DNA of 59,042 nt, filler included. It is 7 parts of 7 records of this genome, joined end to end, with 100 filler letters (N's around TTAATTAATTAA, not from the genome) between each part and the next. Parts side by side here need not be neighbours in the genome. Positions count along the whole stretch, not along the records: positions 44,149 to 59,042 come from SRR31156797_41825; 6 more parts are not named here. One strand, 5' to 3'. Within the stretch, counting starts at the first letter, position 1. Every line of letters starts with the position of its first letter. A program made the translations under genes and the position numbers. The notes beneath the pieces are model-generated. The model ran no database searches. It was not told the DNA's origin and saw only the letters and a list, made by a program, of their open reading frames with translations. Positions 47,467 through 59,042 of the stretch are shown here, one piece after another.

Positions 47467-48588
47467 CTATTCTATTGTCACCCCATAAACCTGTTCAGCA
47501 TTTTCATAAGCGATCTTTTCCGCTACCTCGGCGGGCAGCTGGCCCAATACAATCCGGCTTATGAACACATGGGTCGTATAATCCTGCCAGAGCTTCTTCA
47601 TGTGTGCGTCGGTGGCGGCAAGTATACGGTCCTGATGTTTAATCAGTATTTCGCGCCATTCCGGTTTCAAGGACAATCCTACAAGCATAGCCGATCCGGT
47701 CATAGCCAGTTTGCCGGAATCACGGAAGTTGTCCATTTTGACCGCCTTTTTGGACATGGTCATATAAACGTTGTTATGGCGGCTCAAAAATTCGTCCACT
47801 TGCTGTGGCGAACCGAAAGCCATATGCGGGATGATGAATATTTGATCCGGCCAGCGCTCATACAAGGCATGGAAACGATGGAAATCCCTTTGCGGAGCGT
47901 AAACCTCAAAATGGGTCATGAGCGGTATTTTCTTTTCCGCCAAGCGTGACAAGAAGCGGTCCGTACCCGGTAGTGAGGGGTCGGTATAACGTTCCCCGGA
48001 AGCATAGCTGGCACCTGATTTTTTGTCTCCGTGAGTGTAAAGGATCTCGCCCACGAATTTATATCCGTGTTTGTCTATGCCCTTAAACATGGCAGAGGCA
48101 TAATCATCGCCAATGTCTTTTTTATGGCGAAAATATTTAGGTGCGCCGAGAATGATCAGATCTTTATTGTCGGAAGCTATCCGCAACACAGCACGTTCAT
48201 TCTGGCCCAGCTTCTTTCTGCTGCGGGCAAAAAGAGCCAACTTATCCACACCTGCTTCACGCACCCTTTCAATGGCCCTGCCCATAGACACTTTTTCATC
48301 TATCTGGCTCATGGCATCGAAATAGGGCCCCGTGTAGAACCCGACTTCTTCAGGAAGTTTTTCGTTCAATTTGAGCAGACAATGGACGTAATATTTATCG
48401 GCCTTAACGGCTCTGGAACTGTCTCCGGGATCAAGGCCACTCTCAAGTCTTGCAAGAATATCCCGCCCCGTTTTTTGGCTTATGCATTCGCGCATTGCCG
48501 GACTAAGGCCACTGTATGCCGGAAAGGAGTTGGCAAAGACCGGGGAACTAAACAGAATTAACAGTACGCAAAGGACGAATCTTTTCAT
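47467..48588 (-). CDS. Exported amidohydrolase-fold protein
   Basis: Signal peptide from MKRF, VGEI, THFE, PHMAF, DRIL.ATD, AEKIAYENA. Confidence 0.7.
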   Translation of the reverse strand: MKRFVLCVLLILFSSPVFANSFPAYSGLSPAMRECISQKTGRDILARLESGLDPGDSSRAVKADKYYVHCLLKLNEKLPEEVGFYTGPYFDAMSQIDEKVSMGRAIERVREAGVDKLALFARSRKKLGQNERAVLRIASDNKDLIILGAPKYFRHKKDIGDDYASAMFKGIDKHGYKFVGEILYTHGDKKSGASYASGERYTDPSLPGTDRFLSRLAEKKIPLMTHFEVYAPQRDFHRFHALYERWPDQIFIIPHMAFGSPQQVDEFLSRHNNVYMTMSKKAVKMDNFRDSGKLAMTGSAMLVGLSLKPEWREILIKHQDRILAATDAHMKKLWQDYTTHVFISRIVLGQLPAEVAEKIAYENAEQVYGVTIE

Positions 48589-48660
48589 GCTCTCTCCCAT
48601 AGGTTTACTGTATTTAAAATACACTTTCTGCGGGAGGCAGGCCAGATTCTTTTTAAACAG

Positions 48661-49125
48661 TTAGCGTGCTATCTCAGCAAAAAGACCGCGCAGCAAGACA
48701 GCAAGATCCTGCGGACTTAATTCAATATCCAATCCACGCTTACCGCCGCTGACATAAATTGTTTCAAAACTTTCTGCGGATGCATCAATTACGGTAGGTA
48801 ATAACTTTTTCTGGCCCAACGGACTTACCCCGCCTACTACGTATCCGGTGGTGCGTTCCACCAACTTTACGTCAGCCATGGCTATTTTCTTGACCTTAAC
48901 GGCCTTGGCTAATGATTTAAGGTCGAGCATTTTCATTACCGGAACTACTGCTACGAAAAGGTCGCGCCCGCTTCCGGCTACCAGCGTCTTGAAAACACGC
49001 TCCGGGTCAACGCCCAGCTTTTCCGCTGCTTCCTTGCCGTAAGCCTCGGCAGACGGATCATGTTCATATTCGTGAACCTTAAACGTAATTTTCTTTTTTT
49101 TGGCGATATTAATTGCAGGTGTCAT
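48661..49125 (-). CDS. ybaK: Cys-tRNA(Pro) deacylase
   Basis: MTPA, FKTLV, TGYVVGGVSPLGQKK, VSGGKRGL. Confidence 0.93.
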   Translation of the reverse strand: MTPAINIAKKKKITFKVHEYEHDPSAEAYGKEAAEKLGVDPERVFKTLVAGSGRDLFVAVVPVMKMLDLKSLAKAVKVKKIAMADVKLVERTTGYVVGGVSPLGQKKLLPTVIDASAESFETIYVSGGKRGLDIELSPQDLAVLLRGLFAEIAR

Positions 49126-49167: not shown

Positions 49168-49965
49168 TTAAGCCAGCATTTTATCGACGAATCCCTGCGG
49201 GGTTATTTCTTCCAGCTGCAAACCGAAATGGGCACTCAATTGCACAACCTGCGGGGGAAGCAGTCCGCAGCGCCCGAGCAAATCATTATTCATAAACAGG
49301 TCCGCGACCTTGCCGTCAAACTGCTTTGTCCCACTCTCAAGACAAATGGCCCTTGAACAATTTTCAGCCACAAAATCCATATCATGGCTGATAATCACAA
49401 CTGTCCGGCCAGCTTCTTTGAGCTTTGAAATTTCATTCTCAAGCAGACCGATTTCACAGGGATCAAGTCCGGCAGTAGGTTCATCGAAAACCACTATTTC
49501 CGTATCCATTGCCAATACCGATCCCATGACCAAACGCTTACGTTCGCTGAAGCCAAGATCATGGGGATTACAATCCTTCATTTCCAGCAATCCCAGCGAA
49601 GTTAGAAATTTCTCACCCAGCTTTTGGATACGTTCAGGGTCATAGCCAATATTTTTCGGCCCGAAAGTGACTTCATCCCAAACGGTTGCCTTGCAGATCT
49701 GATCATCAGGATTCTGGAAAAGCATGGCAACCATTCCAGCCAGCCGCGAAATTTTCTCATCTGCAGCTGAAAGACCATTCACTTTCACGCTGCCGCTTGT
49801 TGGATGCAGCAGGCCGTTAAAATGACGGACCAATGTACTTTTGCCGGAGCCGTTGTGTCCCAACAGGGCCACGATTTCTCTCTGATTCAAGGTCAGCGAA
49901 ACATCTCTAAGGGCTTCCACACCGGACTCATAACGAAAGGACAGATTCGTTACCTCAATTGTCAT
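49168..49965 (-). CDS. ECF transporter ATPase (A')
   Basis: GHNGSGKST, FQNPDDQI, FDEPTAGLD, ISHDMD; start MTIEV. Confidence 0.9.
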   Translation of the reverse strand: MTIEVTNLSFRYESGVEALRDVSLTLNQREIVALLGHNGSGKSTLVRHFNGLLHPTSGSVKVNGLSAADEKISRLAGMVAMLFQNPDDQICKATVWDEVTFGPKNIGYDPERIQKLGEKFLTSLGLLEMKDCNPHDLGFSERKRLVMGSVLAMDTEIVVFDEPTAGLDPCEIGLLENEISKLKEAGRTVVIISHDMDFVAENCSRAICLESGTKQFDGKVADLFMNNDLLGRCGLLPPQVVQLSAHFGLQLEEITPQGFVDKMLA

Positions 49966-50809
49966 GGCGAACCTCCAGCCCTTCAATCACTTCGCCGAAA
50001 GTAGTAGCCAATGTCCGCCCTCCAGCCCAACGATCACGGTTCCGGGCCAATTCGGAAACCTTGCTGAAACGGGTCCAGTCCAACCCTATTTCCTTGAGCA
50101 ACGGAGAAACAAGGATCTCTGCTGGCGGTCCGTCCAGCAACACTCTTCCTTCATGCAAGGCTATGACCCGGTCAGCATAATAAGCAATGCTCTCCATCCG
50201 CTGTTCTGCGAGCACAATGGTTTTCCCCTTACTACGCAGACCATACAAAATTTCAAAAACCTGCTTCGCAGCCAGCGGATCAAGAAAAGTAGTTGGCTCA
50301 TCAAGGACAAGCACAGGAGTCTCACAGGCCAAAGCCGAAGCAAGAGCCACTTTCTGCAACTGCCCCCCGGAAAGATGATGAGGAGAACGCTTTGCCAAAT
50401 CTAAAATTCCGGTCAAAGCCAATGCATCATCAACCCGCTGTAAAATCTCATCACGTTGCACACCCCGGTTCTCTAGGCTGAAGCCCACTTCCTCGGCAAC
50501 GGTGAAATGGATACCGGAAAGCTGCCGTTCAGGATGCTGCATGACCAAGGCCACAGATTCGGACAATTCTGCCAACGGAACTTCGGCGATATTCTGAGCA
50601 CATACCCGGACACTACCATCCATCGTGCCATGGTAAAGCTGAGGGACTGCCCCGCACAAGGCATTACAAAGCGTAGACCTGCCGCTGTTGTTGGCCCCGA
50701 TCAGAGCCACAAATTCACCGGCTTCAATTTTCAGGTCCAGATTACTCAGAACCGGACGGGATGAAGCAGTATAACTGTATGAAAATTTCTCGATTTCAAT
50801 AAGAGACAT
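49955..50809 (-). CDS. ECF transporter ATPase (A)
   Basis: GANNSGRST (variant Walker A), LSGGQ, LDEPT. Confidence 0.88.
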   Translation of the reverse strand: MSLIEIEKFSYSYTASSRPVLSNLDLKIEAGEFVALIGANNSGRSTLCNALCGAVPQLYHGTMDGSVRVCAQNIAEVPLAELSESVALVMQHPERQLSGIHFTVAEEVGFSLENRGVQRDEILQRVDDALALTGILDLAKRSPHHLSGGQLQKVALASALACETPVLVLDEPTTFLDPLAAKQVFEILYGLRSKGKTIVLAEQRMESIAYYADRVIALHEGRVLLDGPPAEILVSPLLKEIGLDWTRFSKVSELARNRDRWAGGRTLATTFGEVIEGLEVRHDN

Positions 50810-51593
50810 AGCGATATAACAATGTGTTGTAGAGCAGAAGCAGTATGCTGAGCAGCAACATCAGACGTCTGGCAACCCGTTGCGCCGGGGAATCAGCAAC
50901 AACGCGCATGGAAGTCCGCTCCCCTTTTGCGCTGAACCCACGCAGCTCAAGAGCAATGGCCCGTTGTTCAATCTCGGCAAAAGCCCCCAGAACCAGGGGA
51001 AAAATCAATGGGGCAATGGAACGTGCCCTATTCAGGAAACTACCTTCGGAATCAAGTCCCCGCGCTCTTTGCGCATCCTGAATGGTCTTCACCCGCGCCC
51101 GCATGGCCGGAAGCATGAGCAGAGGACTGCCGCAAACATAAGCCAGTGAGGAAGGCAACCCGGACTCAATCAGGGAGGTTATCAGATCAGCCGGATCAGT
51201 TGTAAACACGAAGATCAGGGAGACTGTCAGCACAGTCGCCAATTGCAGCAGAATCGTTGCAGCAAAAAACAACCCTTCCGAATAGATGGATATCCCATGA
51301 TATGAAAAAAGCACGCTGCTGTTACCGGGATAGAGCAACCCATGAATAGGGATCATGAACAGGGCAATGGGCAACAGGGTACGCCAGAGGAATTTCCAGA
51401 CCCGGACCGCAATCCCGGCCATAAGAGCCAGCAGCACATTCAAAAGCAGCAAGACCGCATCCGGCCAAGGGCCGCCCGGAGCACAATATACCGCCACCCC
51501 CGTGAGCAGCACAAACGTCAGCTTGCTCAGGGGGGGGACGGAATGGATACAGGATTTTCCCGCACAAAAAAGGGAAGTGCTTTCAGCCTGCAA
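50796..51593 (-). CDS. ECF transmembrane component T
   Basis: AQRARG and ALELRGF motifs. Confidence 0.9.
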   Translation of the reverse strand: MQAESTSLFCAGKSCIHSVPPLSKLTFVLLTGVAVYCAPGGPWPDAVLLLLNVLLALMAGIAVRVWKFLWRTLLPIALFMIPIHGLLYPGNSSVLFSYHGISIYSEGLFFAATILLQLATVLTVSLIFVFTTDPADLITSLIESGLPSSLAYVCGSPLLMLPAMRARVKTIQDAQRARGLDSEGSFLNRARSIAPLIFPLVLGAFAEIEQRAIALELRGFSAKGERTSMRVVADSPAQRVARRLMLLLSILLLLYNTLLYRYVSY

Positions 51594-51604
51594 AGACCTA
51601 ACCT

Positions 51605-52204
51605 TTATGCCTTTGCCAGTGAAGGAAAGCGTGCGGCAGCCCTTTCAGGGAGACTCTTCACGATACCCCAGACCAGCACAGCAGTTGCGACCTTATCGAT
51701 AACATTAGTAGTGAACACGGTAACTACCACGGAACCAAAAAGATCGCGGCCCAATGCCAGCAGATACGCCATTGCAAAGTCAGCGCCGCTTCCGGTGATA
51801 CCGCCGAACATGTACAGGCGGATAGGCACGGCAACTACAGAATTGAAAACAGTAATGATCAGCCCAGCGAGAATGGCGGTCCACCAGTTCTTGAACATAC
51901 CCATGCGGGCACAAACCCCGGCGATAATACCGATAACCATGGCTACCGGGGCAAAAGCCGCGGCAACCGGGGATGAAATCACACCCCAAATCAGGTTGGT
52001 GATCAGACCGGCAAGTCCACCAGCCCAAGGTCCGGCCAGCACACCCACCATCACTGTGCCGATGGAATCAAGAAAAATAGGCAGCTTAAGCAAAGATACC
52101 AGCTGTCCCACGGCGATATTGATGACGATCGCCACTGCGATCAGAACCCATGTAAATGTTGTAAAATCTTTTTTAATCTGCTCTGTAACACCCATCCCAC
52201 TCAC
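51605..52204 (-). CDS. ECF S component
   Basis: LKLPIFLDSIGT...LAGPWAG; about 6 TMs; in operon with T, A and A'. Confidence 0.85.
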   Translation of the reverse strand: MSGMGVTEQIKKDFTTFTWVLIAVAIVINIAVGQLVSLLKLPIFLDSIGTVMVGVLAGPWAGGLAGLITNLIWGVISSPVAAAFAPVAMVIGIIAGVCARMGMFKNWWTAILAGLIITVFNSVVAVPIRLYMFGGITGSGADFAMAYLLALGRDLFGSVVVTVFTTNVIDKVATAVLVWGIVKSLPERAAARFPSLAKA

Positions 52205-52611
52205 TCCTTGCTGCTGATTTGTGATTTGATTTCCAGTTCCGGATAACCGGTCTGGGGGTCAAAACTTCTCAGAAAGGAGTATTCCGGAAAAACGGCCAAC
52301 ACTATTTCAGCGGTAGTGTAGACCCTGCTTCCTTCCATCATATGCGCACCAATAGTTTTTCCTTCCCCGTCGGATATGGCGATGTGAAAATGGGAACCGT
52401 GCCGGGAAAGCACCCCGGTCAGAGAAACTATCTCAAAATGCCCGTTAAGCTCCGTGGTCTGCCCCTGATTGGCAAAACGCAAAACAGCCTTGGTCAGACT
52501 GCCCACGCAAGTCAGCACACAAGCGGCTTCAATCTCCTGTTCCTGCGCAATACGCTCCAGTTCAAGCAGGATGTCCTGCCCCGGTTTAACCCTGACCGCC
52601 AGAGATTCCAT
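52201..52611 (-). CDS. PPC/DUF296 domain protein
   Basis: R..PGQD, CVGSL..A.LR.A, EIVSLTG, HFHIAISD..G..GAH, TTAE. Confidence 0.9.
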   Translation of the reverse strand: MESLAVRVKPGQDILLELERIAQEQEIEAACVLTCVGSLTKAVLRFANQGQTTELNGHFEIVSLTGVLSRHGSHFHIAISDGEGKTIGAHMMEGSRVYTTAEIVLAVFPEYSFLRSFDPQTGYPELEIKSQISSKE

Positions 52612-52751
52612 GCTATAACTCCATTCCTGATTAAGATTGACCATCCCTTTAAAGGAGTTACAATTACATCACTATTTCAAATACTTCCAATTGGAAAAAG
52701 AAATACAGCAACACAACATGCATTTAATAAAGCTATATCTTCACTAACAAT

Positions 52752-52786
52752 AAAACCCCGCCAGCAATGCTGACGGGGTTCTTTTT
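52752..52786. terminator. Intrinsic (bidirectional) terminator after the APC permease
   Basis: AAAACCCCGCCAGCA-A-TGCTGACGGGGTTCTTTTT. Confidence 0.75.
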
Positions 52787-52823
52787 ATATTAGATATGGC
52801 AGAAAAGCTGCCGGGAATATCAA

Positions 52824-54326
52824 CTATTCAGAAGCAGTCTGGGGCTGACCCTGAGTTGCGCCTTTGTAGAATACCGGAATATCATCACTACCCAAAACAT
52901 TTCTACGCATCTGAGCTTCAGGAAGCTTAGCCCACGCATTTTTGTTGGAGAAGTAGAAGAACACACCCATTGCCACCCATGCAACCATGCACCAGCGTGA
53001 TGCTTCACTGATGTAAGCAGGGGAGCCGGGGATGAGCAGCAGAACGATGCAAAGTACGGAAGCAAGGGTACCCATGCCGCAGCAAAAGAGCTTAAGGGAG
53101 CGCTGGTCAACATCTACAGAACCAAGAATTACCCGGCGCGCAGCAAGGCAGGAAAACAGGTAACCGATACCGGTACCAACAGAACTCATATCAACAATCC
53201 AAACGATAACGGAACGTCCGGCAAAGGGAGTGAGCAGCACGATGGCGATGGTGAACAGGATAGCCTTGTAGGGTGTGCGGTATTTGGGGTGAATTTCACC
53301 GAACCAGGAAGGCATGATGCCGGCACGTGCCATACTCAACAGCAGGCGGGAGGTAGCGATGTAAAAACCGTTAATACCGGTGCAGACCGCGCCCATAACT
53401 GCACAGGCCAGAATTACCGCACCAAGCTTACCGAAAGCCATGGCTGCAACTTCACCAGTTGCCCACGCGGTACCTCCGGCAGCACGCATGGCATCCATAT
53501 TAGCCAGCATTTCAGGAACCGGAATGGCGATACCTACGGCGAGAGTAACCAGAGCATAAAGAACAAATCCGCACAGGATCGCGATGATCATGATGTTACG
53601 GGCATAAGAAGGCTCAAAAGTAAATTCCTCAGCAGCCTGCGGAACAGTATCGAAGCCTGCGAAAAGAAAGGGGGAAATGGCGAAGATGATGAGTACGCAG
53701 GAAAGCATTGAACGGTGCTCAGCGAAAAGCGGAAGCAGGTTACCAACTTCTGCAGTTTCAAGAGAGGCAGAACCGGTAAACAGGGAAACAATACCCAGAG
53801 TCAGCAGGAAGGTCAGCATAACCTGAAACTTACCTGCAAAGCTGTTACCGCGATAGTTCATCCAGCCGAAGAGCACGGTTGCGGCAGTCATCAGAATTAC
53901 CTCGCCAGTGTATACCTGCCATCCGGCAATGGAATACAGAGCCCCGAATTCAAATACTCCCGGGAAGAGAAAACGAAAAATAAGAGCCAGAGCGGCAACA
54001 TCGATGCCGATGATGGCTATGTACCCGAGCACGAGTGCCCACCCGCAGACAAAAGCCGCAGACGGTCCAAAGCCGACATAAGCATATGCAAACGCACCGC
54101 CTGCAACAGGGGCGTACTTAATCATGTAACTGTAGCTGATTGCTACGAAACAAATAAGGAATGCACCGACACCGAAGCCGATCAGGGTACCCAGAATACC
54201 AGCCTGCGGAAGAAACATATCACCGGGGAGAACAAAACACCCCCAACCTACGATTGACCCCAGTGCCAACGCCCAAACCTGTGCGGGCGACATTGATTTT
54301 TCTAATTCAAGTTGTTCTTGTGACAT
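52824..54326 (-). CDS. APC-family amino acid/amine permease
   Basis: GSIVGWG, PVAGG.F.Y, F.GFD..PQAAEE, SRLL.SMAR.G..P..F..IHPKY.TP. Confidence 0.92.
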   Translation of the reverse strand: MSQEQLELEKSMSPAQVWALALGSIVGWGCFVLPGDMFLPQAGILGTLIGFGVGAFLICFVAISYSYMIKYAPVAGGAFAYAYVGFGPSAAFVCGWALVLGYIAIIGIDVAALALIFRFLFPGVFEFGALYSIAGWQVYTGEVILMTAATVLFGWMNYRGNSFAGKFQVMLTFLLTLGIVSLFTGSASLETAEVGNLLPLFAEHRSMLSCVLIIFAISPFLFAGFDTVPQAAEEFTFEPSYARNIMIIAILCGFVLYALVTLAVGIAIPVPEMLANMDAMRAAGGTAWATGEVAAMAFGKLGAVILACAVMGAVCTGINGFYIATSRLLLSMARAGIMPSWFGEIHPKYRTPYKAILFTIAIVLLTPFAGRSVIVWIVDMSSVGTGIGYLFSCLAARRVILGSVDVDQRSLKLFCCGMGTLASVLCIVLLLIPGSPAYISEASRWCMVAWVAMGVFFYFSNKNAWAKLPEAQMRRNVLGSDDIPVFYKGATQGQPQTASE

Positions 54327-54646
54327 CAGATTATCTCTTTGTTTTATGAGTTCACGGCAGACTTCCCCTGAACCTCAAGGTGTCCAAACCCCGGCAGCTG
54401 TTCCTCCTCGAACATTGTTCGGCAACTGCCTGCTGCCGCGTTCCGGTCTTCAAACTAGGATCTCGCCCATCCAATTCATAAATATGAAATGAATTTTTTA
54501 AAGACGACATACTAGACCGGACACACTTCACCATGATTCCGCTTACAGCGACATGGCCTCCTCTCCTTTGCAAAGAGCGAACGATTATCTATACACTTTC
54601 AATCTACCTGGTTCAGCAGCCCTACCAAAAGCCGCTGCTCCATATA

Positions 54647-54663
54647 AGCAAACAGAGTGCCAA
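54647..54663 (-). promoter_or_regulatory. sigma54 (-24/-12) promoter for the APC permease
   Basis: Minus strand TTGGCACTCTGTTTGCT, a match to TGGCAC-N5-TTGC. Confidence 0.8.
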
Positions 54664-54926
54664 TTCGTGAAATTCTTCACCATCGACTTAATATCTAGAA
54701 ATAACTGACTAAAAAATTCTAACCATCACCAATGTCAATATGAGCACTTTAAAACATCTTTCTTTTTCGAAAGTTTTTTTTACTTTCTTGTAAATTTCTT
54801 TACTCCTCACAAACTCCTTCCGAAAGCAGCCGATTACTCACCCGCAACATGCGAATCATTGACTTAAACAATCAAATCAGGAAGATAGCTAAAAATATAC
54901 GATTTTATCATCCAAAATCACAGAAA

Positions 54927-54942
54927 AGGCATCCCCTTTGCA
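54927..54942 (+). promoter_or_regulatory. sigma54 promoter for DUF4125-tauE
   Basis: AGGCATCCCCTTTGCA (GG-N10-GC), 40 nt upstream of the ATG. Confidence 0.7.
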
Positions 54943-54981
54943 ATCTGAAAGATCGTTATTTTTTTCATTAAGGAGGCACCC

Positions 54982-55542
54982 ATGGCCGAAGATAAACGGA
55001 CCCAACTCATTGAGCAGATCATTAAACTGGAACTGGATATGTTCCTTGCAGTTAATAACCGCGGAGGCACCTCACTTTGTCAGGAACGCCCGGAATCTTT
55101 CCGAATAATGCGCAATATGACTCATTCTGTTCTCCCGGACGAATATCTGGAGTCGTATCTCGCCGACCTAGAACAAGCCGCTATCGAAAAGCGCAATCTC
55201 ATGACTGAAAAATACGCACTCATGGAAGGACTCATCCCGGAACAAAACAATTCCCCGGGCATTGCTGAAATTGTGTCCATGGAAAGCGAATGGCGCAAGG
55301 AAGTTGCCACCCAATTCCCGCGTTCAGTGCACCCTGACGGACACCAGTCTTTCTGCATCTATCTCGGCAGCGAGTTGCAGACCTATTCCCAAAAGACCTT
55401 GGATATCTATCTTGAATACGCACAGTCCGTACATAAAAAGCACGGCAACCTCGTGCGCGAAAGATACGAAATCCTCATGCGTATGTTGGGATACGATTCC
55501 CTCGCCCATTGCGAAAAATCAGTAACCAATCCAGCAGAGTAA
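54982..55542 (+). CDS. DUF4125 family protein
   Basis: LE..MF..V.NRGG...CQ..P.SF.IMR, LESY..DL..A....RNLMTEKYA.M, YL..EL.TYS; AAGGAGG RBS. Confidence 0.8.
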   Translation: MAEDKRTQLIEQIIKLELDMFLAVNNRGGTSLCQERPESFRIMRNMTHSVLPDEYLESYLADLEQAAIEKRNLMTEKYALMEGLIPEQNNSPGIAEIVSMESEWRKEVATQFPRSVHPDGHQSFCIYLGSELQTYSQKTLDIYLEYAQSVHKKHGNLVRERYEILMRMLGYDSLAHCEKSVTNPAE

Positions 55543-55548
55543 ATTTCC

Positions 55549-56283
55549 ATGTTTGATTCACCCCACACCCTTGTATTCCTGCTCTGGCTGATCGGCGGAT
55601 TTGTATCCGGGGTCAGCGGTATCGGCGGGGCCATGGTCGCTGTTCCGGCAGCGGCCATGTTCATTCCCATGCAGGAGCTGGTTCCCCTTGCCTGCCTGCT
55701 CAATGTAATCATGGACGGCAGTATCGCGGCCATGCATTTCCGCCATTGCCGATTCTCCGCGCTAAAACCGCTTTTGGTCGGGTCCGTACCCGGAGCCTTT
55801 GCAGGCCTGTACATTTTGACCTTTGTTTCCAGCACCATCCTGCAAGGAGCTGTAGGCGCGCTACTTATTTACTACGTATACTGGCAGCTCACCTTCAAGG
55901 TTGAAAAAACTCACCCGGAATCATGGTCACGGGGCAGTGCCGCCGGATTCGGAGCCAGCCTGCTCGGCACAGCCATATCCTTTGATGGTCCGCCCATTGG
56001 AGCTTACGGCCTCTACGTGGGCTGGCAGCCGCGCGTATTCCTCGGCACCCTCGGCGTATTTTTCGTCATCCGCGCCACCTTCACCTGCATCCTGCAGGCA
56101 GGGGCCGGACTGATCACTCCCACGGTGATCGACTACGCAATCTACGGAGTCCCGGCCACGCTCATCGGGACACTGCTCTCCTTCCCGGTAATTAAGCACA
56201 TCAATCAGGATCTGTTTCGCAAAGTGCTCATGACTGTAATCGCACTGGCCGGAATCGTATGTCTGATCAGATCTTTTTTGTAA
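55549..56283 (+). CDS. TauE/SafE (TSUP) family exporter
   Basis: GFVSGVSGIGG, G..PG...G, GPP; two hydrophobic repeats. Confidence 0.85.
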   Translation: MFDSPHTLVFLLWLIGGFVSGVSGIGGAMVAVPAAAMFIPMQELVPLACLLNVIMDGSIAAMHFRHCRFSALKPLLVGSVPGAFAGLYILTFVSSTILQGAVGALLIYYVYWQLTFKVEKTHPESWSRGSAAGFGASLLGTAISFDGPPIGAYGLYVGWQPRVFLGTLGVFFVIRATFTCILQAGAGLITPTVIDYAIYGVPATLIGTLLSFPVIKHINQDLFRKVLMTVIALAGIVCLIRSFL

Positions 56284-56285
56284 AT

Positions 56286-57785
56286 TTAATAATCGTCTTC
56301 AATTCCAAGCTGCTGAATCTTATAGCGCAAACCGGCTCCAGTTATCTGCATTATCCGGGCGGCCTTGGCGACATTGCCGCCCGTTACTTTAAGCACATTC
56401 CTGATACACTCGGTCTCGTACTGCTGCACACAACTCTTAAGCGGAACCACGCTGTTGCGCTTGATCATATTGTAATCAAAAAAATTCTTACCGAACATGG
56501 AATCATTGACCTGCTGCGGAGCAGCCACTTCCGGACGCGGAGCAGCGGGCATGAAAGCCTTTTCGCAAGCCTCGCGAAAATGACGGGGCAGATTGTCCAC
56601 GCCAATAGAAGTGCGACTGCCCAACAAAGCCAGGCTACCTTCTATAACATGCAATAATTCACGCACGTTACCAGGCCAATCGTAATCAATAAACATCTGC
56701 ACCACATCCGGCTCCACCCCGATCAAACCGGGCGAATTTGTCTGCTCTGAACGGGCAATGAAAGAACGGATAAGCACGGCCAGATCTTCCTTACGTTCCC
56801 GCAGGGGCGGTATGGCCAGACCGACCACAGCCAACCGATAGAAAAGGTCACTACGCAAGAGACCTTCGCTTACGGCATTGAGCGGAGCTTCGTTGAGGAT
56901 GCTGATCACCCGTACATCCACGGGAATTTCTTTTTGTGAACCGAGCCTGCGCACCCGTTTCTCCTGCAACACACGCAAAAGCTTGGCCTGCAAACCCAAA
57001 GGCATGGAGTTAAGTTCATCAAGAAGCAAGGTTCCGCCATTGGCTTCTTCGAATAGACCTGGCTTATCCGGAGCATCGGTATAGGCCCCCTTGGAAGTGC
57101 CGAAAAGGATTGCTTCGAGCAGGTTTTCCGGGATCGCCGCACAGTTTTCGGCAATAAAAGGCTTCTCTCGACGATCACTTTCCATATGGATAGCCTGCGC
57201 AAAAACCTCCTTACCCGTGCCGCTCTCACCCCAAATCATTACATGAGAGGAGGACTTAGCTGCAGTACGGGCCTCGACCAGCACTTCACGCAAAGAGTCA
57301 TCCTCACCCACAAGTGAATCAAATGTGTAATATGAATAGTTTTTATCGCGGGAAGTGGATTTACGGGAACGTTTATTGGAACCGCTCAAAGGAACTGAAC
57401 CGGTCCAAAGAGTGAAAGCAATAACCCCATCCTTATGCCCCTGATCATAGAGCGGAAAGAAGTCGGAAACAGTTCCGGCAAGATAGTTATTGGTAGTCTT
57501 ATAGAGATAGCTCTTGCGCAGGACGGGTTCGCTTCTGCGGAGACATTCAACAGTGGGGATGCAATCCAATTCATGGGGCACATAGAGCTTGGTAATATGC
57601 TGCCCTTCCACGTGTATGCGAGTAAAACCGTCCGCCCTGCGCTGGATGGGGTTCATATATTCGCAGTACCCTTCGGCATCCACCACCGCCACGCCGAGTC
57701 CCAGATCATCCCAGATGGCAATCATCTCTGGAGTCAGCATGCTGCGGCGGCTGACATTAAAAAACTTGTCCTTGCTAAAATACAT
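56286..57785 (-). CDS. RocR-like sigma54 enhancer-binding protein (PAS-AAA+-HTH)
   Basis: PAS-like N-terminus, GESGTGKE, GAYTDA loop, LDELNSM, LNEAP, WPGNVREL, GNVAKAA HTH. Confidence 0.92.
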   Translation of the reverse strand: MYFSKDKFFNVSRRSMLTPEMIAIWDDLGLGVAVVDAEGYCEYMNPIQRRADGFTRIHVEGQHITKLYVPHELDCIPTVECLRRSEPVLRKSYLYKTTNNYLAGTVSDFFPLYDQGHKDGVIAFTLWTGSVPLSGSNKRSRKSTSRDKNYSYYTFDSLVGEDDSLREVLVEARTAAKSSSHVMIWGESGTGKEVFAQAIHMESDRREKPFIAENCAAIPENLLEAILFGTSKGAYTDAPDKPGLFEEANGGTLLLDELNSMPLGLQAKLLRVLQEKRVRRLGSQKEIPVDVRVISILNEAPLNAVSEGLLRSDLFYRLAVVGLAIPPLRERKEDLAVLIRSFIARSEQTNSPGLIGVEPDVVQMFIDYDWPGNVRELLHVIEGSLALLGSRTSIGVDNLPRHFREACEKAFMPAAPRPEVAAPQQVNDSMFGKNFFDYNMIKRNSVVPLKSCVQQYETECIRNVLKVTGGNVAKAARIMQITGAGLRYKIQQLGIEDDY

Positions 57786-58019
57786 TTTTCACAACCTCTC
57801 TCTTTCCCCGGAACGGCCCGAAACAAACTTGGTCCTCCGGCTGCTGATTGGGTCGTTAAGTTAAAAAATATTTTTTAGCAAACCAAAATTTTCTTCTAAA
57901 AAGAAAGATTTCTTTCTTTTTAGCTTCCAACCGCCTCAGTATAAAACCTCCTGCTTGTGCGTATTTAAACACTATTATTTCAGCCAATTAACTATTATTT
58001 TGACCACAGAACGCATCTC

Positions 58020-58035
58020 TGGCACGGCCCGTGCT
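58020..58035 (+). promoter_or_regulatory. sigma54 promoter for the glycyl radical enzyme
   Basis: TGGCACGGCCCGTGCT (GG-N10-GC), divergent from the activator gene. Confidence 0.75.
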
Positions 58036-58118
58036 AGTGACGAAATTAACAAGCGAACGAATAACACTTTCAATCTACCTAAAAGACCAAAACAATAGCA
58101 CAATCACAGGAGATGGAA

Positions 58119-59042
58119 ATGAATACTACTCTGTCTGCAAAAGAAGAGACCCAGACCGCCCAAGGATACGGCATCAACTGGGATACCGCTGAAGAGCGCG
58201 CCAAGGAACTCAAAGATTACCTCATGAACGCTCCTCAGGTCATGGACCCCGAGCGTTTGAAGTTCCTGAATGAAGTATATGAAAAGCATCAGGGTGAACC
58301 TGTAGTATATATCCGCGCCAAAGTTCTCGAGCGCGTACTGACCCAGAAAAAAATATTTCTCGACGGCAACCCCATTGTAGGTACCCTTACAGGTGTCCGC
58401 GCAGGTGTTTACGCATACCCCGAATGGAACGTCTCCTGGATTAAAGAAGAAATGCAGATGGCCAAAATGGCCTCCCTCGGTGAGATGAAAATTCCTGCCG
58501 AAACTCAGGAACTGCTCGAAAAGACCTACAAGCTCTGGAAAGGCCGCACCTGTATTGACCAGAACAACAAGATGTACAAGGAAAAGTACGGTGAAAGCGC
58601 CAAGAAGTACGCCAAAGCCGGCATGTACTACGAAAACGTTTCCGTTGCTTCCGGTTCCGGCATTGCCGACTACGGCATGGTGCTGAACAAAGGTATTCGC
58701 CACCTTATCAATGATGTGCGCACACGCCTCACCGAGACCCAGAACACCCTTGCAAACAGAGATAAAATAGATCTCTACCGCTCCATGCTGATCACCTTTG
58801 AGGCAGTAATCAAACACTCCCACCGCTACGCCGATCTCGCAGAGCAGACCGCAGCGGAAGAGTCCGATCCCAAAGTGAAAGCAGAGCTGCTCGAAATCGC
58901 AGAAATCTGCCGCCGCGTCCCCGAACACCCGGCCCGCAACTTCCGCGAAGCTATCCAGTCCTTCTGGTTCACCCATCTTTGTGTTGCAACCGAGCAGATG
59001 GCTTGCGCTGTCTCCCCCGGTCGTTACGGTCAGTACATGTAC
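58119..59042 (+). CDS. Glycyl radical enzyme (PFL-like family), N-terminal 308 aa, runs off the window
   Basis: Hand translation: MNTTLSAKEE...DPERL...GEPVVYIRAKVL...PIVG...YPEW...DYGMVLNKG...RYADLA...ELLEIAEICRRVPEHPARNFREAIQSFWF...SPGRYGQYMY; AGGAG RBS. Missing from the ORF track because it has no stop in the window. Confidence 0.9.
   Translation, partial: MNTTLSAKEETQTAQGYGINWDTAEERAKELKDYLMNAPQVMDPERLKFLNEVYEKHQGEPVVYIRAKVLERVLTQKKIFLDGNPIVGTLTGVRAGVYAYPEWNVSWIKEEMQMAKMASLGEMKIPAETQELLEKTYKLWKGRTCIDQNNKMYKEKYGESAKKYAKAGMYYENVSVASGSGIADYGMVLNKGIRHLINDVRTRLTETQNTLANRDKIDLYRSMLITFEAVIKHSHRYADLAEQTAAEESDPKVKAELLEIAEICRRVPEHPARNFREAIQSFWFTHLCVATEQMACAVSPGRYGQYMY

Follow-up and report, generated by a model that had tools for sequence, protein, structure and literature searches.

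A conserved, probably sigma-54-dependent and catabolic module around an unassigned glycyl radical enzyme of Desulfovibrionaceae

Introduction

The gene cluster considered here occupies positions 52752-59042 of a 59,042-nucleotide stretch of DNA (the window) and, based on gene calls and Pfam, consists of an APC permease, a DUF4125-TauE/TSUP pair, a sigma-54 activator of PAS-AAA+-HTH architecture and the N-terminus of a glycyl radical enzyme (GRE). Its regulatory layout is already described for an operon of Desulfovibrio vulgaris Hildenborough that is annotated as pyruvate formate-lyase (PFL): The gene of an activator with a GAYTDA loop, DVU2275, is located divergently from the sigma-54 promoter of the 'PFL' operon DVU2272-DVU2269 (PMC4641369), and the regulon, for which an AT-rich palindromic site was predicted, was assigned to pyruvate metabolism and transport (Kazakov 2015, PMC4641369). 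As far as the regulon is described in that account, the locus of the window shares with it the single-component activator, the rare GAYTDA loop, the divergent position relative to a sigma-54 promoter that drives a 'PFL'-annotated GRE together with its activase, the AT-rich palindrome and a transport function in the operon; it differs by its three promoters and by the additional APC permease and DUF4125-TSUP pair. The likeness to DVU2272/DVU2275 is one of regulatory layout, with no D. vulgaris protein among the 120 best matches listed for either the GRE or the activator, and the assignment of the DVU2275 regulon to pyruvate metabolism finds no support in the predicted active site of the window GRE clade.

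With regard to the enzyme and its partners, the IslA/IseG systems (PDB 7KQ3, 5YMR) resemble the window in the combination of GRE, activase and transporter under a sigma-54 activator, in their occurrence in Desulfovibrionaceae and in the lack of downstream enzymes. In contrast, the enzymes themselves are about 30% identical to the window GRE (328-363 bits), and the glutamate of their CXE motif is replaced by Ser and their Arg/Gln/Arg anchor by Val/Ser/Asp in the window clade. GREs of the IseG type (GC[TA]E loop) are present as separate genes in D. piger and in a Maridesulfovibrio relative, of which the D. piger enzyme (locus L086) is the only one confirmed against solved structures. CutC, HypD, HpyG/HpzG, glycerol dehydratase (GD) and propanediol dehydratase, HplG and YbiW/PflD contain the same PFL-like and Gly_radical domains as the window clade; these eliminases and isomerases also have in common with it an activase of the two-extra-ferredoxin type, and reach the best sequence scores (355-424 bits). 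According to a June 2026 review, all GRE eliminases and isomerases keep the CXE motif, the glutamate of which binds the substrate hydroxyl (PMC13450708), whereas this residue is Ser, Gly, Thr or Ala in the window clade.

The comparison of sequences presented below suggests that the cluster is, with somewhat better than even probability, a conserved sigma-54-dependent catabolic module around a GRE of an uncharacterised functional class. So far, every new assignment of a GRE has brought to light a new anaerobic pathway (choline, hydroxyproline, isethionate, 2,3-dihydroxypropane-1-sulfonate), often with an effect on gut chemistry, and members of the clade in question are conserved among marine as well as gut-dwelling Desulfovibrionaceae, for example D. 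piger, D. desulfuricans and Mailhella. The host of the window module is a marine sulfate reducer, and its GRE, an oxygen-sensitive type of enzyme, belongs to a widespread, uncharacterised branch, which makes it a promising lead for the discovery of new enzymes; since the module has a switch and transporters of its own, induction screens and reporter assays are straightforward routes to the substrate.

Results and Discussion

Family placement of the glycyl radical enzyme

The genes of the module are arranged in the window as follows:

52824-54326, minus strand: APC-superfamily permease, 500 aa (Pfam AA_permease 95 bits, AA_permease_2 90 bits)
54982-55542, plus strand: DUF4125 protein, 186 aa (Pfam 189 bits)
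55549-56283, plus strand: TauE/SafE (TSUP) membrane transporter, 244 aa (Pfam PF01925, 104 bits versus a gathering score of 32.6)
56286-57785, minus strand: sigma-54 enhancer-binding protein (Sigma54_activat 204 bits, AAA_lid, HTH_8 34 bits)
58113-59042, plus strand: GRE, first 310 aa, cut by the window end (Pfam PFL-like 201 bits)

DUF4125 and TauE are separated by six bases, and the activator gene is convergent with TauE and divergent from the GRE. The true start of the GRE is probably at 58119, since the ATG at 58113 immediately follows the Shine-Dalgarno sequence AGGAG and is missing in relatives. The C-terminus of the GRE and the activase lie past the window end and were taken from relatives, of which two Maridesulfovibrio chromosomes (L001, L002) are the nearest (96% identity over the GRE N-terminus); other orthologs are present in Pseudodesulfovibrio, Halodesulfovibrio, Desulfobaculum, D. 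piger ATCC 29098, D. desulfuricans and Mailhella (69-82% identity over the N-terminal 310 residues, 71-86% over the whole GRE). An earlier note on this stretch had placed the genes at the same positions and had proposed a host from the Desulfovibrionaceae, which is borne out by the gene calls with their Pfam matches and by the two Maridesulfovibrio chromosomes, respectively; its description of the regulon as self-contained is valid for the activator, the transporters and the GRE start, and is only partly right because the activase is located outside the window.

The full-length orthologs in L001 and L002 comprise 819 aa. Membership in the GRE superfamily is indicated by the PFL-like barrel of the window part and by the Gly_radical domain with the RVxG motif in the ortholog (P0006: PFL-like 535 bits, Gly_radical 106 bits, glycyl motif RVAGFSAYF); the activase gene directly downstream of the GRE in L001 scored 359 bits with TIGR02494 (cut-off 174). 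A TGA codon inside the match of one ortholog, considered as a possible selenocysteine codon, proved to be the natural stop codon read through by the search.

At the level of function, all NCBIfam equivalog models remained below their cut-offs (scores given as bits/cut-off: HypD 506/1100, IAD 506/1100, HpsG (NF048011) 481/1000, CutC 441/1050 and, further below, HpfG (NF048009) 406/1000, HPAD 390/1150, PFL (TIGR01255) 74/994), and the cut-off of the PFL2-3 subfamily was missed too (515/678). The best solved structures were CutC (424 bits), HypD (417), HpyG (404) and glycerol dehydratase (401), with IslA at 328; judged by these scores, the GRE is close to no solved structure. In a FastTree phylogeny of 90 GREs from the fetched loci (Shimodaira-Hasegawa (SH)-like support), the 36 rows with Ser, Gly, Thr or Ala at the CXE position formed one clade with a support of 100 (Cys loops: CVS 29, CVG 5, CVT 1, CVA 1). 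D. piger IseG and the CutC-like and GD-like rows fell outside this clade; the latter two labels were given by the Cys-loop motif alone, while D. piger IseG was the one enzyme checked against solved structures. Cut-offs, structures and tree were therefore all negative with respect to a characterised cluster, in agreement with the earlier designation of the GRE as unassigned. No characterisation of this clade was found in the literature on GREs, Desulfovibrio, DUF4125 and sigma-54 regulons, a survey with subscription papers and supplements outside its scope. Two more sizeable GRE groups of the tree (15 rows) have Asp in place of Glu in the Cys loop (CLD/CID and CVD) and matched no labelled enzyme in the tree.

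The source annotations of the GRE homologues are all generic, and some of them read 'formate C-acetyltransferase'. Taken together with the pyruvate-metabolism assignment of the DVU2275 regulon by Kazakov 2015 (PMC4641369), such annotations would be consistent with a true PFL, or with another characterised GRE, in a locus devoted to pyruvate metabolism in the manner of the D. vulgaris DVU2272 annotation. This identity appears highly improbable: It is largely refuted by the PFL score of 74 bits versus a cut-off of 994, by the Cys loop, in which one catalytic Cys is followed by Val-Ser instead of the adjacent C418/C419 pair reported for PflB (PMC12338860), by the failure to reach the equivalog cut-offs of HypD, CutC, HpsG, HpfG, IAD and HPAD, and by the separate position of the clade in the tree.

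Cysteine loop, predicted active site and the sulfonate alternative

Throughout the ortholog group, the sequence of the Cys loop is GCVSTG(V/I)CGKGS, and the Ser of its GCVS motif aligns to the glutamate of GCVE in CutC, HypD, HpyG and glycerol dehydratase. In the sister clades the motif is GCVG, GCVT or GCVA, so that the CXE motif of the eliminases and isomerases is absent throughout. For comparison with the sulfonate-cleaving enzymes, the IslA numbering was transferred via D. piger IseG (L086; 1151 bits with 5YMR, also matching 7KQ3), which was then aligned with the clade. In this sequence alignment, IslA R189, Q193 and R678 correspond to Val, Ser and Asp, i.e. the Arg/Gln/Arg sulfonate anchor of IslA/IseG/HpsG is missing from the clade, and the segment that matches R189/Q193 is a Gly/Ser-rich loop (SVASG-SGIADY). 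Where GD has His281 and HypD has Asp278, the clade has an invariant Cys in the motif EQMAC; other clade-invariant blocks are LSGHTGQ and DA(Y/F)SLS(Y/F)HNYF.

Because the catalytic glutamate of all known eliminases and isomerases is missing, the clade probably performs a different chemistry from these enzymes; with the sulfonate anchor lacking as well, the reaction is expected to differ from the known C-O, C-N and C-S eliminations. As the CXE glutamate is replaced by Ser and the sulfonate Arg/Gln/Arg by the Gly/Ser loop and Asp, the polar steps must, according to the alignment, make use of other clade-invariant residues, the candidates being the Cys of EQMAC, the His of SGHTGQ and the Asp/Tyr/His of DAYSLSYHNYF. 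It is tentatively conceivable, with the odds rather against it, that the Cys-x-(Ser/Gly/Thr/Ala) clade constitutes a new functional class of GREs without a glutamate base that acts on an amino-type, possibly sulfur-containing substrate. Within such a class, catalysis might start at the carbon beside an amino group held by the conserved Asp, or the second active-site cysteine might drive a thiol-assisted, reductive chemistry. If a new class were indeed present, it would point to an unfamiliar nutrient or sulfide source for Desulfovibrio, Mailhella and relatives, with a substrate common in marine sediments and animal guts.

The same residues bear on an organosulfonate route, in which an amino-sulfonate (taurine-like, N-substituted taurine, homotaurine or similar) would be imported and cleaved by the GRE to sulfite, which would feed dissimilatory sulfite reduction, with TauE handling sulfite or sulfonate. 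The presence of a TauE/TSUP gene within the regulon and the sulfate- or sulfite-reducing lifestyle of the hosts would fit this route, as would the minimal layout of transporter, GRE and activase with a sigma-54 activator that is also described for D. vulgaris IseG (DVU2822-2825; PMC4641369); sister-clade loci contain an SsuA-family binding protein (72 bits versus a cut-off of 163) with an ABC transporter, or a TRAP system, and the Gly/Ser-rich loop could bind an anion via its backbone amides. However, the substitution of the IslA residues R189/Q193/R678 by Val/Ser/Asp and of the CXE glutamate by Ser, together with the missed equivalog cut-offs of HpsG and HpfG, argues against a sulfonate substrate, and no specificity-defining feature is known for TSUP transporters, many sigma-54 operons of D. 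vulgaris being reported to encode TSUP or PSE transporters (PMC4641369). Furthermore, taurine and cysteate are disfavoured as substrates by published data. D. piger DSM 749 (given as ATCC 29098 in the protein-database list of the paper) did not grow with taurine as electron acceptor (PMC6453916), which disfavours taurine because an orthologous cluster is present in the D. piger ATCC 29098 record. For cysteate, CuyA/CuyB already provide a route in such bacteria (PMC11193023). The organosulfonate route is, in consequence, regarded as unlikely, and the sulfonate version of the pathway proposed in the earlier note, which had an amino acid, amine or amino-sulfonate as substrate, is weakened by the non-conserved Arg/Gln/Arg anchor and the taurine result of D. 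piger.

Sigma-54 promoters and leaders

Putative -24/-12 promoters were scored against the sigma-54 consensus TGGCAC-N5-TTGCW (11 specified bases), a box being required to contain GG-N10-GC. The promoters and the leaders that follow two of them are located at:

54327-54636, minus strand: permease leader of about 310 nt (promoter-to-start distance), moderately structured (fold z = -2.47)
54647-54662, minus strand (reverse complement): permease -24/-12 promoter TGGCACTCTGTTTGCT, 0 mismatches to the consensus
54927-54942, plus strand: DUF4125-TauE -24/-12 promoter AGGCATCCCCTTTGCA, 9/11 specified bases
58020-58035, plus strand: GRE operon -24/-12 promoter TGGCACGGCCCGTGCT, 10/11 specified bases
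58036-58112, plus strand: GRE leader downstream of the -12 box GTGCTAGTGACGAAATTAACAAGCGAACGAA, nearly invariant in five loci of three assigned genera

The number of consensus matches in the window is not above chance (three with at most one mismatch versus 2.0 expected), and the case for the promoters therefore relies on their conservation, which was analysed up to 450 nt upstream of the genes in 36 GRE loci, window included. A box of at least 9/11 precedes the GRE in 34 of the 36 loci (at least 10/11 in 30), the loci without it being L024, with just 98 nt of upstream sequence, and L028, with an interrupted GRE. Upstream of the permease, a box of at least 10/11 is present in 19 of 21 loci, and upstream of DUF4125 one of at least 9/11 in 7 of 10 cases; among 1,110 random segments of 460 nt from the same loci, 8.1% reached 9/11 and 3.7% reached 10/11. 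Sigma-70-like sites were absent from the three promoter regions, and rpoN (TIGR02395 above cut-off) was detected in both genomes searched, i.e. the 96%-related Maridesulfovibrio genome and D. piger. The three promoters named in the earlier note are thus present in their places and conserved in relatives well above the random rate, and the arrangement of a single activator and three sigma-54 promoters around an unassigned GRE stands as it had been proposed. Based on motif conservation, the regulatory reading, with promoters predicted to depend on RpoN and the activator, is well supported.

The permease leader folds moderately well (3 of 100 shuffled sequences fold as well) and matched no Rfam family. 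The GRE leader is not structured (fold z = -1.16); like the GRE promoter, it is nearly invariant across the five loci mentioned, and it is better kept than the flanking upstream region. An exact 17-mer, ACACTTTCAATCTACCT, is found on the plus strand in both leader regions, at 54593-54609 (permease leader) and 58064-58080 (GRE leader), which are its only two occurrences in the window (0.12 expected); its two copies would be complementary between the permease and GRE mRNAs. Among the nearest relatives, L002 has it in both leaders and L001 in the GRE leader alone.

Activator and its candidate binding sites

The activator comprises a PAS-like sensor (approximately residues 20-130), an AAA+ domain with a GAYTDA loop and a Fis-type HTH, i.e. 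the Sigma54_activat AAA+ domain, the GAFTGA-type loop (here as the GAYTDA variant) and the C-terminal HTH that characterise bacterial enhancer-binding proteins. The loop variant is considered compatible with activation (Kazakov 2015, PMC4641369); it is present in 24 of 30 activators beside this GRE clade, and the sister-clade activators have GAFTGA. In the N-terminal 150 residues, Pfam PAS matches were sub-threshold (PAS_4, E 0.012). The top Foldseek matches of an AlphaFold model of this part (mean pLDDT 70.6) were all PAS domains (EcDOS, NifL and DhaR; E about 1e-4, TM 0.75 to the target), so that the N-terminal domain, according to the model, has a PAS fold. The best NCBIfam match of the protein was PrdR (NF041552, 322 bits versus a cut-off of 795), no RocR model surfaced in the NCBIfam library output, and 'arginine utilization regulatory protein' is an automatic name given by JGI; a homologue with 61% identity is present in the amino-acid-degrading Desulfovibrio aminophilus. 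The PAS part of the former designation 'RocR-like PAS activator' is supported by the Foldseek matches, and RocR-like is to be understood as a label at the level of architecture.

Two sequence elements represent candidate activator sites:

54757-54769, minus strand: half-site CGAAAAAGAAAGA, one mismatch to the arm of the GRE palindrome, between the divergent permease and DUF4125 promoters
57896-57923, no strand assigned: perfect inverted repeat CTAAAAAGAAAGA-TT-TCTTTCTTTTTAG (13+13, AT-rich), 97-124 bp upstream of the GRE -24 box

A palindrome of the AAAGAAAG type is located at -100 to -135 from the GRE -24 box in 14 of 25 loci examined, and the inverted repeat at 57896-57923 is a candidate upstream activating sequence. 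By its position, the half-site at 54757-54769 is a candidate for an activator site shared by the two promoters at its sides.

The PAS domain contains three conserved cysteines, namely the invariant C41 and C81 and the nearly invariant C75. In this respect the activator is similar to OrpR, a sigma-54 activator of D. vulgaris with the same PAS-AAA+-HTH architecture and three conserved PAS cysteines, by which its PAS domain binds a [4Fe-4S] cluster (PMC8359166); the spacing of the OrpR cysteines (C52, C61, C65) differs from that of C41, C75 and C81 (PMC8359166), and the OrpR regulon is unrelated to the one under study. Since the three conserved cysteines recall the Fe-S sensor of OrpR, the signal perceived by the activator could be the redox state instead of the substrate.

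Conservation of the module

Among the 30 loci that form the ortholog set (GRE at least 71% identical), the activator is present in 28, the other two being truncated by the end of the contig; 27 contain the activase, 20 TauE and 18 the permease, and DUF4125 occurs in eight, each time directly before TauE. No other gene family is common across these 30 loci; in particular, no aldehyde dehydrogenase, aminotransferase or microcompartment gene is shared. In a survey of 201 sampled genomes of the family, 12 contained an ortholog (at least 71% identity) and 11 more contained paralogs only (48-62%). Some of the GRE protein clusters hold hundreds of metagenomic members.

Transporters, DUF4125 and the amino acid alternative

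The permease reaches no NCBIfam subfamily cut-off; among solved structures it is closest to plant CAT4 and GkApcT (E 1e-16 to 1e-12), and it is presumed to be an importer. For TauE, no NCBIfam model matched. The DUF4125 protein was modelled by AF2 as all-helical (pLDDT 90.6), and its search for fold relatives gave generic helices at most (Foldseek best E 0.46; VIA wide search best Z 7.0 over 61 residues). DUF4125 is also found in Geobacter loci (L059 13530-15746, L080), where genes of a TPR protein, DUF4037 and DUF4125 follow a GD-like GRE and its activase under a PocR-PAS histidine kinase; DUF4125 thus accompanies GREs of two different clades. In addition, a gene cluster for limonene degradation is reported to contain it (PMC12583861). 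A second, stand-alone DUF4125 copy (68% identical) is located in L002 (413-973) beyond the ECF transporter operon described below; none was seen in the window.

An APC-family permease would also be appropriate for the degradation of a sulfur-free amino acid or amine by radical deamination, decarboxylation or thiol-assisted reductive cleavage via the second active-site cysteine. PrdR, the best family match of the activator (below cut-off), is a regulator of proline reductase; homologues are present in the amino-acid-degrading D. aminophilus (see the 61% identical activator above), and the Asp at the IslA R678 position and the extra conserved Cys would be in line with such a substrate. Moreover, a redox-type C_GCAxxG_C_C protein is encoded after the activase in two Maridesulfovibrio loci. 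This protein, however, occurs in just 2 of the 30 loci, the locus lacks a conserved partner of the aminotransferase, dehydrogenase or thioredoxin type, and the TSUP pair is left unexplained; a purely sulfur-free pathway of this kind is accordingly judged quite improbable.

Proposed mechanism

For the sigma-54-dependent catabolic module favoured here, the following sequence of events is proposed. A signal, either the substrate or a low redox state, would reach the PAS domain of the activator. From conservation and from what is known of the family, the activator would bind the AT-rich palindrome at the GRE and the half-site between the permease and DUF4125 promoters, and its AAA+ domain with the GAYTDA loop would open the RpoN closed complexes at all three promoters. 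The APC permease may then import a small zwitterionic or cationic nitrogen-containing compound, and the downstream activase, whose position in the gene order is seen in the relatives, would install the glycyl radical (RVAGFSAYF). The DUF4125-TSUP pair may serve for the membrane transport of an anionic substrate or product. Since no further enzyme is conserved in the locus, the product is expected to feed directly into central or sulfur metabolism. Judging by the family of the permease, the Asp that aligns with IslA R678 and the small residues along the mapped pocket, the substrate may be a nitrogen-bearing compound larger than C2-C3.

Several points weigh against this interpretation. The permease and TauE are missing from some ortholog loci, many of them short contigs; the tree was calculated by FastTree only, and several of its outgroup branches are long; the residues were mapped to IslA, GD and HypD by sequence alignments and not by structure. 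The amino-type nature of the putative substrate is deduced only from the permease family and one Asp in an alignment, and the three PAS cysteines suit a redox sensor as well as a ligand sensor.

Sister-clade loci and paralogs

The sister clades retain the divergent sigma-54 activator but swap the transporter. In L031 and L032, an SsuA-family ABC system (the binding protein with the sub-cut-off score given above) is accompanied by a GNAT protein similar to phosphinothricin/arsinothricin acetyltransferases, and in L030 a TRAP system is located beside the sister-clade GRE. Approximately 50 kb away from its ortholog, D. piger contains a second member of the superclade (L090; 54% identity, GCVA loop), which is accompanied by a PAS activator and an activase of its own and by a ferredoxin-nitroreductase gene, but not by an adjacent transporter. 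The paralogs of four other genomes of the family (L092-L095) are 48-49% identical and have an SCVG loop and GAFTGA activators outside the GAYTDA group. This 48-49% group carries Ser for Gly before the catalytic Cys (SCVGTG), and in L032 (6981-15551) an SCVGTG paralog is arranged in tandem with a GCVG enzyme around the SsuA-type ABC transporter. In a Desulfomicrobium metagenome-assembled genome (L028, 9494-13776), a related GRE appears to be broken up into two parts of about 430 aa, the first of which is flanked by inverted copies of a pair of open reading frames (296 and 129 aa); this looks like a disruption by an insertion sequence, and the upstream sigma-54 box is poor (7/11).

Left boundary and neighbouring genes

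Directly 3' of the permease stop, a hairpin delimits the module:

52752-52782, minus strand: terminator-like hairpin, 14-bp stem with 8 G-C pairs

Read from 52782 to 52752, this is a strong terminator and the left boundary of the module, which parts the permease unit from a neighbouring PCC/DUF296-ECF operon. An Rfam scan of 52000-59042 gave two sub-threshold chance matches only, both on this hairpin. The neighbouring operon (49168-52644, minus strand) encodes a PCC/DUF296 protein followed by an ECF transporter composed of an S component, a CbiQ-type T component and two ABC ATPases. Since these neighbours are kept in L002 but not in L001, the operon is probably not a member of the regulon. Further to the left, an amidohydrolase (47467-48624) and a YbaK-type tRNA_edit protein (48661-49125) are encoded.

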